DNA of 64,000 nt from Candidatus Sericytochromatia bacterium (GTDB taxonomy: Bacteria > Cyanobacteriota > Sericytochromatia > UBA7694 > JACMQJ01), in NCBI GenBank assembly GCA_046328015.1, contig JAXLXH010000001.1, positions 3,173,135 to 3,237,134 of the forward strand, written 5' to 3'. This document shows positions 48,571 to 63,596 of this stretch, piece by piece. A model generated the notes under the pieces. It saw only the letters and a program-made list of their open reading frames with translations, did not search any database and was not told the DNA's origin. Numbering within the stretch: position 1 is the first letter of the stretch; each line of letters starts with the position of its first letter. The position numbers and the translations under genes are program-made.

Positions 48571-48676
48571 AAAAACCTCTTTATATACTATACGGTATAT
48601 AGTATATTATATAATAAAAAAAATAACAAGCTTATATAGCTAATTCAAATTTTTAGCTTACATTTAAGATTATATT

Positions 48677-48845
48677 TTTATTAGAGAATACCTCAGAGCT
48701 TTGCTCTGGGTTTTAAGAGGATACGGGGGTGTCTAAAAAGTGTGCGTTAATTATAACGCCCATACGAAAACACTGGCTTTAACCCTAGTCTTTCGTAAAA
48801 AAAAGACCTAAAAAAAGCCTTTTTGGACACACCCGTCTTAAATTA
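48677..48845 (+). repeat. repeat family B copy 2, extended structured form (candidate ncRNA)
   Basis: Core ttagagaatacctcagagctttgctctgggttttaagaggatacggggg; long-range pairing acgggggtgtc (48723-48733) with ggacacacccgt (48825-48836). Confidence 0.5.
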
Positions 48846-48904
48846 ATTTATATGCTAATAGCTATAAGATAAAAAATTTATGAAATATTAAAAAAATATT
48901 TATA

Positions 48905-49972
48905 TTATTGATTTCCGGTAAAAGAATTCCATAATCTTTGTAATTCAGCTTTTTCTTCTCTAGTTTTACATTTAGAAGGGTTATAAACAAGAACTTGATT
49001 GTTATAAGCTTGATTTAAACCGTCTTTTGAAACTCTAAAAATTGGAACAGAACTTCCTCCTATATTATTCGGTAAGGCTTGAATCCAAGGCATTTCAGAG
49101 TTACCACCTTGAGTATTAAAAACTGCTGTATGAGCAACTTCACCACCTTTAAAACATATTGCAATAGTCTTATTTCCTGCTCTTCTAATAAGATCATCTA
49201 AACTACTTGGCTTAGTATCTTGCCCAAGTGCATAATGATGACAATTTTTAACTTTAAGACAATGCTCTAATCCTTCTAATTTATACTGATCTGGTGAAAT
49301 ACCTAATTCCCCTTGAATAATTGATTCTTTACACTCATGTAAATCTTTAATGGTTATTTTAATATCATCTGATATGTTTTTTAAAAACTCTTCTGCTTTT
49401 TTCTTTTGCATAGTAGAAAAAGGTCTAAGACTCATTACGCCACTACTTGGATCTAATTTTTGATCAATATTATTATATATTTTATTTATAACACTTTCTG
49501 GAACTCTAAGATTTGTAGCCATTTTAGTAAGTTCTTTTTTTAATATAGGATCCATTTTTTTTTCTTCATTTGGCACTTCAGAAGAATTATTAGAAACCAC
49601 AACATTATTAGTTGAAGGTGATGGAGTACTATTTTCTCTAGGTGTACTAGGTGTAGGTGCTGATTGTGTAGTTTTTTTAGAACTACCTCTCATTGTATTT
49701 GCAACTGAACCTATTTCAGCTACATCTTCTGGATTACATTGAGAAGTTTCAAAAGAATTTAATTTTCTTCTTAATCCCTCAACATCAGTTTGAGGATTAA
49801 TTTTTTTTAGAGTATCAATTATAGAATTTTGAGTAAAACCTCTAGATTTAAAAAGTTCGTAACCTTTTTGGGTTTGAACTGCTTTTTCAAATGATGATGT
49901 AGAAACTGTAGTAGGATTTGTTTTGTTTGGGCTAGTAAAAGAAACTACACCTTGTGAAACACCAATACGCAT
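48905..49972 (-). CDS. Ser/Thr/Pro-rich hypothetical protein with Cys/His-containing C-terminal domain (effector/toxin-like, unassigned)
   Basis: Low-complexity middle STPRENSTPSPSTNN; C-terminal NCHHYALGQ...AHTAVF; 4-bp gap to upstream small gene; locally higher GC. Confidence 0.6.
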   Translation of the reverse strand: MRIGVSQGVVSFTSPNKTNPTTVSTSSFEKAVQTQKGYELFKSRGFTQNSIIDTLKKINPQTDVEGLRRKLNSFETSQCNPEDVAEIGSVANTMRGSSKKTTQSAPTPSTPRENSTPSPSTNNVVVSNNSSEVPNEEKKMDPILKKELTKMATNLRVPESVINKIYNNIDQKLDPSSGVMSLRPFSTMQKKKAEEFLKNISDDIKITIKDLHECKESIIQGELGISPDQYKLEGLEHCLKVKNCHHYALGQDTKPSSLDDLIRRAGNKTIAICFKGGEVAHTAVFNTQGGNSEMPWIQALPNNIGGSSVPIFRVSKDGLNQAYNNQVLVYNPSKCKTREEKAELQRLWNSFTGNQ

Positions 49973-49976
49973 ATCA

Positions 49977-50492
49977 TTAACCTCTCTTAAGCATTTTTTT
50001 ATTTGTAATTTTACGACCTAAAGACATTAAATATTTTTGTTCTGGATTTAAATAAGATGATATTTTAAAATATTTTTCAGCTAAATTTATATCATTTAAT
50101 AAATAACAGATATAAGCAAAAAAGTAATAAGGCTCTGCTCTATTTCTTTTTATAGATATAGCTTCAGAAAATAAATCCAAAGCATTAGTTAACTTATCTT
50201 TATCATTAGGGTTTTCAGAAAACTCACTAATAGCTTGTAATCCTTGGTTAAAAACGTCATCAAATTTTTCATCTTTAGATAAATTATGTTTAATATCTGA
50301 ATCTTTTTTAGCCTCATTAATCATATTGATAAAATCATTAGAAACACAGGTTTTTATATTGAGTTCTTTCTTTTTTTCATTTATTAGCTCTTTAAGATGA
50401 TTAGTTTCTTTTTTTGTACTAGAAATATTTTGCATAAAATCATCTGATTTCGAGCTTTTAGAAGAAATAGATTTAAAAAGTTTTCCGAACAT
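49977..50492 (-). CDS. small alpha-helical (TPR-like) protein, paralogue of 58409-58807; chaperone/adaptor-like
   Basis: EPYYFFAYICYLLNDINLAEKYFKISSYL aligns with KPYLLLAYIYFIIDNKTLSVKYMKIAEEL in the 132-aa protein. Confidence 0.6.
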   Translation of the reverse strand: MFGKLFKSISSKSSKSDDFMQNISSTKKETNHLKELINEKKKELNIKTCVSNDFINMINEAKKDSDIKHNLSKDEKFDDVFNQGLQAISEFSENPNDKDKLTNALDLFSEAISIKRNRAEPYYFFAYICYLLNDINLAEKYFKISSYLNPEQKYLMSLGRKITNKKMLKRG

Positions 50493-61928: not shown

Positions 61929-62229
61929 ATTTACCGTCCTTTAAACTTTCACCTAAATCTTTATAAAGAGAAGTAGCATTTTCTTTAGTTTTTTGACCTA
62001 TGTTACTCTTATGATAAAGATGTATAGTTTTATTTGAAGAAACTGTAATGTTTTTATCAAAATAATTTTTACTATTACCATTAAGAGACCTTCTTATGCT
62101 CTCAAATTTGTCAGTAGCATCATTAAATGGAGCATTTATAAACGTTTCAAATTTATTTTTTATTTTTATATCAAACATTATCTTTTTTCCAATAAATAAA
62201 ATTTTTATTTCCAAATCATAGTTAATCAC
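61912..62229 (-). CDS. small hypothetical protein, first gene of the P5 operon
   Basis: 105-aa ORF overlapping P5 start by 17 nt; preceded by leader repeat copy c. Confidence 0.5.
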   Translation of the reverse strand: MINYDLEIKILFIGKKIMFDIKIKNKFETFINAPFNDATDKFESIRRSLNGNSKNYFDKNITVSSNKTIHLYHKSNIGQKTKENATSLYKDLGESLKDGKYELQK

Positions 62230-62259
62230 CTAAATCATACGTAAATCAAAGTTCAGACT
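62203..62259 (-). promoter_or_regulatory. conserved leader/promoter repeat copy c
   Basis: tttttatttccaaatcatagttaatcacctaaatcatacgtaaatcaaagttcagact. Confidence 0.55.
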
Positions 62260-62355
62260 TTTTTCTATATAAACAACATCATATTTTATATCATTTGATA
62301 TTGTAAAAATTATAAGTACTTTATAAACCCAAAATTATTTAGATAAAAGTAATTT

Positions 62356-63204
62356 TTATAATAATTCCATTTTATTCTGAATTTTCTTTTTAGTAGGATT
62401 GGTATAAAGTAAAGTAGTTTGTATATTAGAATGTCCTGCAATATTAGCCACTTCATGAATTCCAAATCCTTTTTCTAATGCATTAGTGCAAAAAAAGTGC
62501 CTTAAATCATGAGGAGTAATAGTATTATTAGAATATTTCTGAAAAATTCTATTAACAACTGTTCTATTTAGTTTATCTGATTTATTAGAAGAAAAAAGAT
62601 AAATAGAATTTTTTTTATTAGTTTTAAGATATTTTTCTAAAATATTTAGTACTTTTTCATTAAAAAAAACTGTTCTTTGTTTTCCTCCTTTTCCAGAACG
62701 AATAACACATTCTCTTGTATCTAAATTAAAATCGGTATATCTAATATTAAGAGCTTCAGAAATCCTTAAACCTGTATATTTTAAAATATTTATAAGTAAA
62801 ACATTTCTAAGATTTCCAGAATTTATAATTTTTTCTTCAAAAAGATCAATATCTTCTTTATGAATATTTGTAGGAGAAGCAAATTGAGTTTGAATTTTAA
62901 TGTTCATTTTATTAGTAATAACAAAATTAGGTTGGTAGTTTTGCTCTAATAAAAAAGAATTAAAATATTTTAAAGTAATAAGATAATGATTTATTGTTTT
63001 AGCATTTCTATTTAAATCATTAGCTAAATATGATTTAAAATTAGTTACATGCTCTTTTTTTAATTCATTAAAATTTTCTTGATAAGTTTTTTGATACCAT
63101 CTAAAAAAAATATTGATATTATACAAATAACTTTTTATAGTATTTTTTGATTTATCATCTGAAAGTAAAAAAATTTTGAAATCATTTAAGATTTTTTCTG
63201 ACAT
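62356..63204 (-). CDS. tyrosine site-specific recombinase/integrase (XerC/D-like)
   Basis: Catalytic block TPHDLRHFFCTNALEKGFGIHEVANIAGHSNIQTTLLYT and upstream RISEALNIRYTDF Arg block. Confidence 0.8.
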   Translation of the reverse strand: MSEKILNDFKIFLLSDDKSKNTIKSYLYNINIFFRWYQKTYQENFNELKKEHVTNFKSYLANDLNRNAKTINHYLITLKYFNSFLLEQNYQPNFVITNKMNIKIQTQFASPTNIHKEDIDLFEEKIINSGNLRNVLLINILKYTGLRISEALNIRYTDFNLDTRECVIRSGKGGKQRTVFFNEKVLNILEKYLKTNKKNSIYLFSSNKSDKLNRTVVNRIFQKYSNNTITPHDLRHFFCTNALEKGFGIHEVANIAGHSNIQTTLLYTNPTKKKIQNKMELL

Positions 63205-63596
63205 AAAAATACTCTTTTTTTCTAAATAAACTGACGCTATTATAACAGGGTTTCAGACATAATGCAACATAAGTAACCTTATGTTGTATTTTAAATAAGC
63301 TAATTTCTAATAAAAAAATAGACCTTTATATTTTAGCTCTAAGCAATTTATTTTGTTATTTAATGTATTTAATCTAAAATTATAAAAAATAACTTTATAA
63401 GCAATTTATTAAAGGAATTAAACTTTAGATTATTTTATATCAACTTAATTTAATTTGATTGATTCATAAGAAAATTTGTTTTATAATTTACCATCTATTT
63501 TTATAAAATTAAAAGAAAATAAATAATAAAAGTACAAATTTATTGAAAACTTCTTTTTAATAAGTAATTATAGCTTTTAATTTTTTATAGGTAAAA

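Follow-up and report, generated by a model that had tools for sequence, protein, structure and literature searches.

A probable mosaic accessory region with a likely orphan TnpI-like recombinase and core-site module in a Candidatus Sericytochromatia chromosome

Introduction

The Tn3-family transposon Tn4430 of Bacillus thuringiensis encodes a tyrosine recombinase, the TnpI resolvase, whose IRS site has been defined (PMC2847244); at a site reduced to the core, TnpI recombines unselectively with another core and is not specific for resolution (PMC2847244). Recombinases are also found associated with gene arrays, as in the rAID-1 loci of Bacteroidales, which are recombinase-associated arrays of orphan immunity genes for interbacterial defense (Ross et al., 2019; PMC12247911).

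Here, we describe a locus with features of both systems in a 64-kb stretch of chromosomal DNA (the window). Its host, Candidatus Sericytochromatia, is a very AT-rich, non-photosynthetic relative of cyanobacteria. The recombinase and the proteins of the block described below match NCBI proteins encoded on a 3.55-Mb contig of a Candidatus Sericytochromatia metagenome-assembled genome with full identity. A first-pass annotation had proposed that 48.6-63.3 kb of the window is a single island-like block bounded by a tyrosine recombinase. We find that this 14.7-kb stretch is a genuine accessory region, variable between strains, and conclude that it is probably a mosaic, recombination-prone zone of plasticity that carries an orphan TnpI and core-site module.

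Results

The block is flanked on the left by a DUF302 gene (48184-48570, minus strand; Pfam DUF302, E = 1.6e-25) and on the right by a partial gene of secreted-protein type that starts at 63597, as had been annotated. The recombinase provides the only phage-family matches in the block, conjugation and transfer genes are absent from it, and there is no tRNA or tmRNA target in or beside it (the sole tRNA of the window is at 32.8 kb), in agreement with the earlier statement that phage structural genes and a tRNA site are lacking. No att-like repeat common to the two proposed edges was found: the longest shared sequence is a 13-nt low-complexity word, a length also reached by ∼20% of random segment pairs, and the suggested search for direct repeats at 48.6 and 63.3 kb thus gave nothing above chance. 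The tetranucleotide distance of the block is the largest in the window, which counts against a mosaic reading, but its dinucleotide signature is unexceptional and its GC content at third codon positions (GC3) is native (0.065-0.15 inside the block versus 0.06-0.22 elsewhere in the window), so that the GC dips in the block reflect amino-acid composition and not foreign origin.

Two gene pairs had been annotated as effector-like modules. In the left-hand pair, eff355 (48905-49972, minus strand) is a candidate modular effector or toxin: a conserved domain at the N-terminus (residues ∼1-94) is joined through a disordered linker to a papain-like Cys-His domain at the C-terminus (∼215-350), in which C244, H281, and Q298 are near-invariant; 4 nt upstream lies the gene for TPR171 (49977-50492, minus strand), a small TPR-like candidate chaperone or adaptor with a weak LcrH/SycD match (E = 0.0045). 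The second pair, on the plus strand, consists of TPR132 (58409-58807) followed by eff437 (58811-60124), which has an overall GC content of 33%, is rich in Ser, Thr, and Pro, found no match in Pfam, NCBIfam, or PDB searches, and gave an unusable AlphaFold model (pLDDT 31). The two small proteins are homologous (26% identity, E = 6e-7), but no relatedness is detectable between the two large ones. TPR171 is 84% identical to the product of the gene upstream of P0255 in locus L092 and 63% identical to its L094 counterpart, and the TPR-plus-effector pair occupies unrelated neighborhoods in these two loci. Each module is a conserved bicistron in which a small TPR-like gene is paired with the gene for a polymorphic effector candidate. 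Among 1.84 billion representatives, the effector family accounts for only some dozen clusters, of which the one with a recorded organism name is from a Cyanobacteriota metagenome-assembled genome (MAG), and it would combine a conserved N-terminal domain with interchangeable C-termini, papain-like in the case of eff355; the small TPR-like protein would serve as a chaperone or adaptor for toxin export.

Between the two modules, a gene for an OmpA-family outer-membrane protein (50654-51673, plus strand; Pfam OmpA, E = 3.6e-24) adjoins one for a class D (OXA) beta-lactamase (51683-52534, minus strand; 286 bits against an NCBIfam class-D equivalog cutoff of 250), both as previously assigned. The beta-lactamase likely starts at the ATG at 52534, the mechanical ORF extending to a TTG at 52561. 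Its closest subfamily is OXA-2-like (444 bits, under the cutoff of 590), and it is 66-68% identical to the plasmid-borne OXA-732, OXA-46, and OXA-2 families. The OmpA gene has a 98% identical, collinear copy in contig L089 of a near-identical strain, the next best matches being from Bacteroidota (65-68%); the L089 counterpart of the beta-lactamase is called as a 283-aa product.

The minus strand further to the right carries four tightly packed, co-oriented ORFans, par358 (52803-53879), par375 (53887-55014), par367 (55007-56110), and par337 (56110-57123), with a GC content of 15-20%, a GC3 of 0.065-0.12 that matches the remainder of the window, and no signal peptides; the four may be beta-propellers. 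The description of these genes as a paralogue array holds in part: par337 and par367 are homologous (30% identity, E = 7e-12), as is a truncated par337 copy, but BLAST, phmmer, and hhalign revealed nothing significant for par358, par375, and par329 (60939-61928, minus strand). The latter three have in common their size, composition, weak beta-propeller Pfam hints (for par329, E = 9e-5, under the cutoff), and a blade-like motif. For par337, no homologue was found among 5.8 billion proteins. Upstream of par337 is a conserved non-coding leader with three TATGATTT motifs (copy 1, 57112-57213, minus strand), followed by the gene for sec284 (57235-58089, minus strand), a secreted or lipoprotein-like ORFan with an N-terminal signal-like segment in its translation.

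The duplications noted in the first-pass annotation are real. Leader copy 2 (60819-60919, minus strand) lies within a 328-nt segmental duplication (60592-60919, minus strand) that is 97.6% identical to 56885-57212 and also carries a 5′ fragment of par337, the corresponding ORF (60543-60830) encoding 95 aa that are 88% identical to the par337 N-terminus. Leader copy 3 (62165-62299, minus strand) begins ∼57 nt past the recombinase stop codon, and Logan contig L001 breaks within it, at 62212; of the genes downstream of the recombinase and this leader, orf105 (61912-62229, minus strand) and par329 come first. A DUF952 gene (60263-60610, plus strand; Pfam DUF952) is likewise duplicated, its other copy (P0245, MFN8672758.1) lying at a different place in the genome and belonging to the same 90%-identity cluster. 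The two copies diverge from residue 108 (∼60584): where the gene of the block meets the segmental duplication, other sequence takes the place of its last 8 codons, and the DUF952 copy and the par337 fragment abut in a mosaic junction at ∼60.59 kb.

Repeats of families B and C had been placed at internal boundaries of the block. The repeats exist, including a terminator-like C-family hairpin downstream of the eff355 operon (48655-48729), at which Logan contig L002 breaks, and a B-family copy at 52608-52768, but other copies are dispersed across the window (family C at 41422-41478 and 45813-45873; family B at 7324-7447 and 15828-15948, that is, at 41.4, 45.8, 7.3, and 15.9 kb), and they are therefore not specific markers of the block. 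A GC-rich hairpin element at 48719-48840, with inverted ends GGGGGTGTCTAAAAAG and CTTTTTGGACACACCC, is unique; its RNA fold has a z-score of -4.9, it has no Rfam match, and it is absent from 94 comparator loci.

The comparator strain is represented by short Logan contigs only (1.9-3.4 kb), which end inside repeats and none of which spans the outer limits of the block. Contig L089 is collinear with 49234-52581 (98.5% identity); beyond this point it passes into a leader copy, whereas the window continues through a strain-specific junction (52582-52802) that contains the B-family repeat at 52608-52768 and leads into par358; in the near-identical strain, the leader is thus directly upstream of the OXA gene. 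Contig L091 (strain SRR1027651) matches 58091-57162, i.e., sec284 and the leader, at 96% identity, and upstream of a second strain-specific junction, at 58091/2 beside sec284, it has an unrelated 340-aa gene in place of TPR132/eff437. The tails of both contigs end in the same 21-nt leader core. More distant relatives have no synteny with the block. Its outside flank (BtpA/DUF302) is likewise not syntenic with the nearest GTDB relative, in which BtpA is present and DUF302 is not beside it, so that no conserved backbone defines an insertion. The ORFans, the duplicated fragments, the altered gene order relative to a 96-98.5% identical strain, and the lack of synteny with distant relatives bear out an accessory, variable block. 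Over its right two-thirds, near-identical strains differ in gene order at the leader and at other repeats. From the positions of the junctions, we infer that these differences would stem from duplication, deletion, or replacement by homologous or illegitimate recombination of repeats with one another and not from site-specific integration.

At the right edge, where a XerC/D-like recombinase had been annotated, there is indeed a gene for a tyrosine recombinase of 282 aa (62356-63204, minus strand; Pfam Phage_integrase and SAM-like N-terminal domains). It is of the TnpI family: identity to the Tn4430 TnpI resolvase is 49-50% over the full length, and the alignment shows no variation at the catalytic residues R147, K172, H232, R235, H258, and Y267. 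Its Xer and integron equivalog scores in NCBIfam are all below the cutoffs (XerA, 173 versus 220; XerC, 145 versus 335; XerD, 142 versus 330), and because the Xer scores fall so far short, the XerC/D-like label is valid at the superfamily level only. A sequence ∼60 nt upstream of the gene (63260-63291, minus strand) is homologous to the core recombination site of the Tn4430 IRS; in gene orientation it reads AAATACAACATAAG-GTTA-CTTATGTTGCATTA and matches the Tn4430 site, TAATACAACACAAT-ATTA-ATTGTGTTGTATTA, at 22 of 28 arm positions; a TATAAT box is located between the core site and the start codon. The same core site, with another spacer, is found upstream of 62-63% identical recombinase homologues in L083 and L084. 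The 64-kb window has no second core site or half-site, and no DR accessory repeats, tnpA remnant, Tn3-type transposase, or transposon ends were found with the recombinase. Homologues occur in unrelated neighborhoods, in L083, in L093 (joined to a ParA fragment), and in Tn7-like cargo of Tissierella, and a sister-strain copy at ≥90% identity is absent from the protein database searched.

We consider it likely that the recombinase is an orphan, self-contained module, equipped with a core site and a promoter close upstream of the gene. Because it lacks accessory motifs and a partner site that it could reach, it cannot excise or invert the block, and because a core-only site allows unselective recombination, its likely role is resolution or integration of another replicon that bears the same core, or none, as a relic of a plasmid or a Tn4430-like element. 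There may also be a larger element with a second site beyond position 64000, or one with a degenerate second site.

Discussion

If the whole 14.7-kb block were one integrative genomic island, with the right-end recombinase as the integrase that inserts and excises it, one would see what is indeed seen: a recombinase at one border and, outward of it, a recombination site, accessory and ORFan content, the highest tetranucleotide distance in the window, and no synteny of the block with relatives. We nevertheless regard a single island as very unlikely, since the edges share nothing above the chance-level 13-nt word, the window contains a single core site and no further half-site, there is no tRNA or tmRNA target, and GC3 is the same inside and outside the block. 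Moreover, the observed strain differences, at 52581/2 and 58091/2, map inside the block, away from 48.6 and 63.3 kb, its right part behaves independently of the left 3.3 kb, the closest characterized relative of the recombinase is a resolvase and not an integrase, and the flanks are likewise not syntenic with the nearest relative. An alternative that we consider unlikely, if less so, takes only ∼52.6-63.3 kb as a recombinase-associated platform analogous to rAID-1 or an integron, in which co-oriented, low-GC, rapidly diversifying genes, possibly for immunity or decoy proteins, would be headed by the tyrosine recombinase, and the leader repeat between genes would be both promoter and junction for the gain, loss, and duplication of units. 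On the minus strand the order is indeed recombinase, leader 3, genes, leader 2, an intervening stretch, leader 1, and four genes, and this succession of recombinase, leader, and co-oriented low-GC genes looks non-random and counts against a mosaic; however, there are only three leader copies with multi-gene units between them, and the array is interrupted by a three-gene segment on the opposite strand. The leader precedes OXA and a different ORFan lies beside sec284 in the near-identical strain, a leader-bounded fragment is duplicated, and toxin-like modules lie beside and within the array, but the leader is without a TnpI half-site and is not itself a structured element, and the recombinase's own site is on the side away from the array. 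The GC content of the array (15-20%, against ∼25% for the window) follows from amino-acid composition, since GC3 is native. The architecture outlined is exactly the one that defines rAID-1, but the genes here have 330-375 codons against ∼100-300 in rAID and no immunity-family match, and neither leaders nor comparable arrays come after the recombinase homologues in L083, L084, and L093.

Least probable, in our estimate, is that the recombinase and its adjacent palindromic site resolve chromosome dimers, as a single-recombinase Xer/dif system like XerS/difSL in terminus-proximal accessory DNA. The XerA, XerC, and XerD equivalog scores are far below the cutoffs, even though XerA is the best NCBIfam match, and the closest characterized relative is the transposon resolvase TnpI, with a site homologous to the IRS core. 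A single site adjoins the gene, the two are kept together in two relatives, and we take the arms of the core site (TTATGTTG) to resemble XerD-arm sequences of dif; homologues nonetheless reside in Tn4430, in Tn7-like cargo, and next to a ParA fragment. The fact that dif has never been identified in Cyanobacteria (PMC3025954) also favors this possibility, whereas the absence of a ≥90% identical sister-strain copy from the database is weak evidence against essentiality, and GC skew within 64 kb is uninformative on the position of the terminus.

On balance, we favor a patchwork of separate modules; a single integrated element is not supported. At least four kinds of independent module would make up 48.6-63.3 kb: the two bicistrons of a small TPR-like protein and a candidate secreted effector; the stable OmpA-OXA beta-lactamase pair; a fast-evolving, extremely AT-rich set of cytoplasmic ORFans that would be expressed from copies of the ∼100-nt conserved leader; and duplicated gene fragments.

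Islands, ICEs, and prophages with tyrosine integrases similarly have a recombinase that ends an accessory segment and a candidate site on its outer side, but are unlike the present region in having flanking direct repeats, a tRNA target, transfer or phage genes, and foreign codon composition, and in that strains differ by presence or absence of the whole segment and not internally. The beta-lactamase resembles the OXA-2, OXA-46, and OXA-732 integron cassettes (66-68% identity over 99% of its length) and passes the class-D equivalog cutoff; it scores below every subfamily cutoff, however, and unlike the cassettes it is chromosomal, has host-like codon usage, and adjoins OmpA outside any cassette array. 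As in loci for polymorphic toxins or effectors that have a chaperone or adaptor of their own, the gene for a protein with a conserved N-terminus and a swappable C-terminus directly follows a small, conserved partner gene; in eff355 the C-terminus is papain-like, with NlpC/P60 and transglutaminase as structural neighbors. Such loci differ in having a known trafficking domain, an identifiable immunity gene, or a secretion system, of which the window has none. In common with rAID-1 (PMC12247911) are a 5′ tyrosine recombinase, low-GC genes that all run in one direction behind it, an intergenic element conserved in repeated copies, and strain-variable content; the differences are the TnpI-like recombinase, the larger genes, none of them recognizable as immunity genes, the three repeat copies, the opposite-strand interruption, and the phylum. 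The recombinase and its core site resemble TnpI/IRS of Tn4430. DR1/DR2 accessory motifs, an adjacent Tn3-family transposase, and 38-bp terminal repeats distinguish the transposon, and the host here is a Sericytochromatia chromosome and not a Bacillus plasmid; the two systems nevertheless agree in whole-protein identity (49-50%), in all catalytic residues, and in a core of two 14-bp inverted motifs and a 4-bp spacer, 22/28 identical and immediately upstream of the gene with TATAAT in between.

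Gene Content of the 48.6–63.3 kb Block

The genes that the first-pass annotation had listed in and beside the block at 48.6–63.3 kb are real and lie where it had placed them, including the DUF302, OmpA, class D beta-lactamase and tyrosine recombinase genes and the ORFs (locus tags of the block proteins, U0457_138xx). Reading rightward from the DUF302 gene (48184–48570), we find a 355-residue protein (eff355; 48905–49972, minus strand) directly preceded by a 171-residue protein (TPR171; 49977–50492, minus strand), the OmpA gene (50654–51673), the beta-lactamase gene (51683–52534, minus strand), four tightly packed ORFs on the minus strand (par358, par375, par367 and par337; 52803–57123), an ORF for a secreted 284-residue protein (sec284; 57235–58089, minus strand) and a 132-residue and a 437-residue protein on the plus strand (TPR132, 58409–58807; eff437, 58811–60124). 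A DUF952 gene, a truncated ORF, a 329-residue ORF (par329) and a 105-residue ORF (orf105) are confirmed in the right part of the block, next to the recombinase gene (62356–63204, minus strand). Outside the block, the window holds housekeeping genes (ProRS, ribosomal protein L19), an IS4/Tn5-like transposase and many lineage-specific genes.

The first-pass annotation is largely right in what it observed and half right in its interpretation of the block as an island-like unit: the block is accessory and variable, but it has one core site for the recombinase, its observed strain differences are internal, and a unit bounded by the recombinase did not emerge. On balance, we favor the view that the block is a mosaic plasticity zone whose independent modules have been rearranged at repeats, next to an orphan TnpI/core module; the variability would then arise from repeats within the region, and the enzyme is an orphan transposon-type resolvase. 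A tyrosine recombinase beside odd genes is, as a lesson for annotation, insufficient for calling an island. Sericytochromatia are known almost only from metagenome-assembled genomes (MAGs), and the region offers an initial view of the organization of their accessory genome; leads worth keeping are a rAID-like architecture, a new effector family with a TPR-like partner and an OXA-2-clade beta-lactamase with native codon usage.

Strain Variation Observed Inside the Block

The most direct view of this variability comes from a sister strain (second run, SRR1027651; 96–98.5% DNA identity to the window), whose contigs cover the block interior and span neither 48.6 nor 63.3 kb. One of them, L089, is collinear and gap-free with 49234–52581 (eff355, TPR171, OmpA and the beta-lactamase); at 52581/2 it enters a leader copy, where the window has a B-family repeat followed by the four-gene array. 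The other, L091, matches sec284 and leader copy 1 (58091–57162), and upstream it carries a 340-residue ORF without counterpart in the window, in place of the divergent TPR132/eff437 module. Both contigs end in the same 21-nt leader core, which is compatible with, and not proof of, a beta-lactamase–leader–sec284 adjacency in the sister strain. The junctions that differ, at 52581/2 and 58091/2, lie inside the block, so that the variation seen between these near-identical strains is internal and coincides with repeats. Across its right two thirds, the block is made up of pieces that have been rearranged and duplicated into a mosaic.

Short Logan contigs of run SRR26348422 are 100% identical to the window. 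Same-sample contigs end at 58239 and 63378, positions without an internal repeat in the window; a repeat elsewhere in the genome or strain heterogeneity in the sample could be the cause. In the nearest species-representative genome ("Cyanobacteriota bacterium H41-bin165_1"), BtpA is 86% identical, and nothing else around BtpA is shared, even in the block flank. Beyond a few close relatives, the best matches of BtpA (47376–48182; 66–69%) and OmpA (65–68%) are mostly from Bacteroidota or Ignavibacteria, not Cyanobacteriota. Insufficient sampling of Sericytochromatia or an old transfer of genes might explain this pattern, which is not peculiar to the block.

Edges and Composition

A comparison of the two block edges for direct repeats, proposed by the first-pass annotation for 48.6 and 63.3 kb, yielded nothing above random expectation: the longest common word is 13 nt, inverted and of low complexity, and lies within the null distribution, being reached by about one in five random segment pairs. 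As had been noted from the sequence, there is no tRNA target at the block (the only tRNA in the window is at 32808–32891). There is no tmRNA target either, and a PHROGs search matched the recombinase only; no phage or conjugation Pfam families are found in the window.

Composition gives a divided answer. The block's tetranucleotide distance is the largest of any 14.7-kb interval in the window, but its dinucleotide signature (delta*) is unexceptional and its GC3, at 0.065–0.15, is native and does not differ from that of ProRS, L19 and the remainder of the window. Total GC ranges from 15–20% in the ORFan array to 30–33% in the two large effector-like genes, around a window mean of ~24–25%. Because GC3 stays constant while total GC follows GC1 and GC2, these swings stem from amino-acid composition. 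The highest GC3 in the window (0.20–0.22) is found outside the block, in two small genes at 25085–25893 and in the IS4/Tn5-like transposase (43001–44170), and these are better candidates than the block for recent acquisition. The transposase and ribosomal protein L19 directly adjoin a MORN-repeat protein gene (44630–45220, plus strand), visible as six copies of a 69-nt tandem periodicity. Among the features of integrative islands that we tested, the block clearly shows only its accessory nature, and the evidence leans against its being a recombinase-bounded island.

Duplications, Leaders, and Dispersed Repeats

The segmental duplication described earlier is real (328 nt at 97.6% identity, 56885–57212 and 60592–60919), as are the three leader copies. 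In the DUF952 gene (60263–60610, plus strand), the last eight codons are replaced exactly where the duplication of the par337 fragment starts; a second copy of the gene (MFN8672758.1), in the same 90%-identity protein cluster, lies ~400 genes away in the same genome. What had been called an array of paralogs holds only in part: homology can be demonstrated among par337, par367 and the truncated copy, but par358, par375 and par329 show no significant similarity by BLAST, phmmer, two-sequence profile or hhalign. Common to these ORFs are their size, an extreme Asn/Ile/Lys/Tyr content, sub-threshold beta-propeller matches and a blade-like motif that, in a search of all window ORFs, recurs in just three of them. 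No homologs of par337 are present among 5.8 billion proteins.

The three leader copies (57112–57213, 60819–60919 and 62165–62299) lie on the minus strand and share an invariant 45-nt core with three TATGATTT motifs. Each unit has a copy ahead of its first gene, and the sister strain has one ahead of the beta-lactamase gene. Rfam does not match the leader, no consensus fold for it is convincing and it contains no TnpI half-site; a search of JGI metagenome contigs with its DNA returned zero matches. We interpret the leader as a portable promoter or operator region, copies of which would serve as recombination substrates.

The B and C repeats had been seen as markers of internal boundaries; copies also occur at 7.3, 15.9, 41.4 and 45.8 kb, and both families are dispersed hairpin repeats, not boundary markers. 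The B family (7324–7447, 15828–15948 and 52608–52768; core AAACACACTAGATTCCGTA...TACGGAAGGACAAAGTGTGTTT) is intergenic and resembles a REP (repetitive extragenic palindrome) or a terminator; C-family copies lie at 41422–41478, 45813–45873 and 48655–48729. Palindromes are found at 4074–4121 (48 nt, perfect), 41342–41371 (30 nt, perfect) and 14271–14310 (40 nt, 90% identity), in intergenic or genic positions. At 48719–48840 there is a unique, GC-rich element of ~120 nt with inverted, GGGG-ended termini (GGGGGTGTCTAAAAAG / CTTTTTGGACACACCC). It folds much more readily than shuffled sequence does (z −4.9), Rfam does not match it, and neither the window nor 94 comparison loci contain another copy. 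We considered this hairpin as a Tn3-type end or a MITE, but it is unique, unrelated to the B repeat and without a partner near the recombinase; a gene for a small RNA and a lone miniature element are both conceivable.

Effector Modules with a TPR-like Partner

The two effector-like modules reported previously do share a small TPR-like partner (TPR171 and TPR132 are 26% identical, E 6e-7), but their large proteins, eff355 and eff437, could not be related to each other. A full HMMER scan of 1.84 billion representatives returned 11 relatives of eff355, the sole one with a recorded organism being from a "Cyanobacteriota bacterium" MAG. The C-terminal domain of the family has near-invariant C244, H245, C273, H281, Q298 and W348. 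In the contig L092 (26.9% GC), a 172-residue gene product 84% identical to TPR171 lies directly upstream of an eff355-like protein; the latter is 53% identical to eff355 over its first 94 residues and unrelated to it thereafter. Neighboring genes encode a transposase, a CAP-domain protein, an integrase fragment and a large helicase. The same pairing recurs in L094, from Hainich groundwater well H41, with a partner 63% identical, the same type of N terminus, another C terminus and other neighbors. A conserved N-terminal domain, variable C termini and a conserved adjacent partner gene are the marks of polymorphic toxins and effectors, and these are conserved two-gene modules with polymorphic C termini that occupy different sites in different genomes. 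The small TPR-like protein is a candidate chaperone or adaptor, the direct hint being a weak LcrH/SycD match only.

Neither effector is followed by a candidate cognate immunity gene, and secretion-system genes are absent from the window. A PADLOC scan gave one marginal match, of TPR171 to DruC (E 0.0059). For eff437, no relative was found in Pfam, NCBIfam or the PDB, and a single-sequence structure model is unusable (pLDDT 31). Three homologs of eff355 (P0254, P0258 and P0260) carry, between their N- and C-terminal parts, an insert with a weak, sub-threshold match to Peptidase_C80 (CPD type) and the motifs GHG...D...SCHS. Domains of this type are the InsP6-activated autoprocessing domains of MARTX toxins and large clostridial toxins, and the matches hint that the eff355 family may target other cells, possibly eukaryotic ones. 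What is documented here is a lineage-restricted effector family with a TPR-like partner and, in one case, a papain-like C terminus.

A Natively Coded Relative of OXA-2

The class D beta-lactamase gene scores 286 bits with the NCBIfam class D model NF012161 (cutoff 250), OXA-2-like being the closest subfamily, and its translation shows the motifs STYK, YGN and KTG. Over 99% of its length, the protein is 66–68% identical to OXA-732, OXA-46 and OXA-2, integron-cassette families on clinical plasmids. The gene is chromosomal, has host-like codon usage (GC3 0.13) and adjoins OmpA in the second strain too; the block thus holds a chromosomal, natively coded relative of the clinically important OXA-2/46/732 beta-lactamases.

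An Orphan TnpI-like Recombinase and Its Core Site

The recombinase had been called XerC/D-like; its closest named relatives are TnpI proteins. Over residues 3–282 it is 49.1–50.5% identical to TnpI of B. thuringiensis plasmids, its nearest named database matches are "TnP I resolvase" proteins of Bacillus, and an alignment with Tn4430 TnpI and five homologs shows no variation at R147, K172, H232, R235, H258 and Y267. About 60 nt upstream of its start codon, at 63260–63291, lies a site that is unique in the window and, in gene orientation, reads AAATACAACATAAG-GTTA-CTTATGTTGCATTA. The core of the internal resolution site of Tn4430, from a B. thuringiensis plasmid, is TAATACAACACAAT-ATTA-ATTGTGTTGTATTA with the same placement relative to tnpI; it has been defined as two 14-bp inverted motifs with a 4-bp spacer and 6-bp staggered cleavage (PMC2847244), and the two sites are alike at 22 of the 28 arm positions. 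Rfam has no match for the region. The same arms, with a different spacer, precede the recombinase homologs in two metagenomic contigs (L083 and L084, the closest two; 62–63% identical), and in ~1.2 Mb of comparison loci the pattern is confined to the upstream side of TnpI-like genes, which together indicate that gene and site are a conserved unit.

We searched the 64 kb for a second site as a full palindrome (≤3 mismatches), as half-sites with N6 between them and as 8- to 10-mers (≤1 mismatch); the searches returned the core site itself or matches no commoner than in shuffled sequence, so that no second core or half-site is recognizable beyond chance. At a core-only site, recombination depends on random collision and shows no resolution selectivity (PMC2847244), and with one core site in 64 kb the recombinase cannot act on the block. 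Downstream of its gene come leader copy 3 and then ORFans, with no transposase linkage, and tblastn of Tn4430 TnpA against the window gave zero matches at E values up to 10. By sequence, the recombinase is an orphan member of the TnpI family in a core-only configuration.

The homologs occur in unrelated settings: in Tn4430, among Tn7-like cargo genes, beside a glyoxalase gene (here a ParA-like start replaces the N terminus of the homolog) and beside unrelated small genes. In the Tn7-like cargo (TnsA/B/C/D) of Tissierella sp. (GCA_963921605.1; L085, 5890–6964), the TnpI-like gene, 52% identical and neighboring a bAvd-like gene, comes with a full resolution-site layout, consisting of a core, CCACATAA-GATAAA-TTATGTGG, and two direct-repeat motifs. 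In a Logan contig (SRR22388063; L093, 1–832), a homolog 73% identical has lost ~37 N-terminal residues and is joined to a ParA-like start, MGKVITICQNKGGVG, suggestive of a plasmid region for partition and resolution that has been rearranged. A search of IMG/VR found no close relative of the recombinase.

A single-recombinase Xer/dif system for chromosome dimer resolution could pair one enzyme with one site, and in its favor dif is not known in Cyanobacteria (PMC3025954). The equivalog scores, however, fall below their cutoffs (XerA 173 versus 220, XerC 145 versus 335, XerD 142 versus 330, XerS 76 versus 267), and the homologies of protein and site, together with the mobile-element contexts of the homologs, point to TnpI; we regard the Xer/dif reading as very improbable. 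Skew inside the window, which is part of a 3.55-Mb chromosome, tracks gene orientation.

Comparison with Known Systems

Measured against the TnpI/internal resolution site system of Tn4430, the recombinase and its site share three of five defining features, namely the catalytic residues, full-length similarity and an IR1-IR2 core upstream of the gene. The two that differ are the DR1/DR2 accessory motifs, no further CAACATAA-type motif being found near the recombinase gene at ≤1 mismatch, and linkage to a Tn3-family transposase and 38-bp terminal inverted repeats; DR1/DR2-type motifs do occur in Tn4430 and in the Tissierella homolog. An integron was rejected: the IntI models reach 103 (cutoff 265) and 64 (cutoff 435), the array lies downstream of and co-oriented with the recombinase, the site lies on the side of the recombinase away from the array, and a look for attC-like repeats found none.

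By analogy with integrons or rAID-1 clusters, the recombinase, the leader and the co-oriented, hyper-AT-rich ORFans might form a working gene-array platform of a non-photosynthetic cyanobacterial lineage, on which leader-bounded units would be captured, duplicated and exchanged between strains and might encode defense or decoy proteins matched to the neighboring polymorphic toxins; we consider this unlikely. The rAID-1 clusters of Bacteroidales are defined by a recombinase, a conserved repeat and co-oriented low-GC genes, the 5′ recombinase being at least 44% identical to BF9343_RS08045 (10.1101/471110). The leader resembles such a repeat in part: its three copies share a 45-nt core, but it is sparse, most array gaps being without a leader. 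Unlike in rAID-1, a segment on the opposite strand breaks the array, and the orphan immunity genes have no counterpart, with zero matches to immunity families in Pfam, NCBIfam and PADLOC. The layout of recombinase, repeat and genes is alike, and at least two downstream genes are co-oriented and low in GC: orf105 and par329 directly downstream and the four-gene array further on, at 15–23% GC against a window mean of ~25%. Were the array reading true, recombinase-associated gene arrays would reach beyond Bacteroidales.
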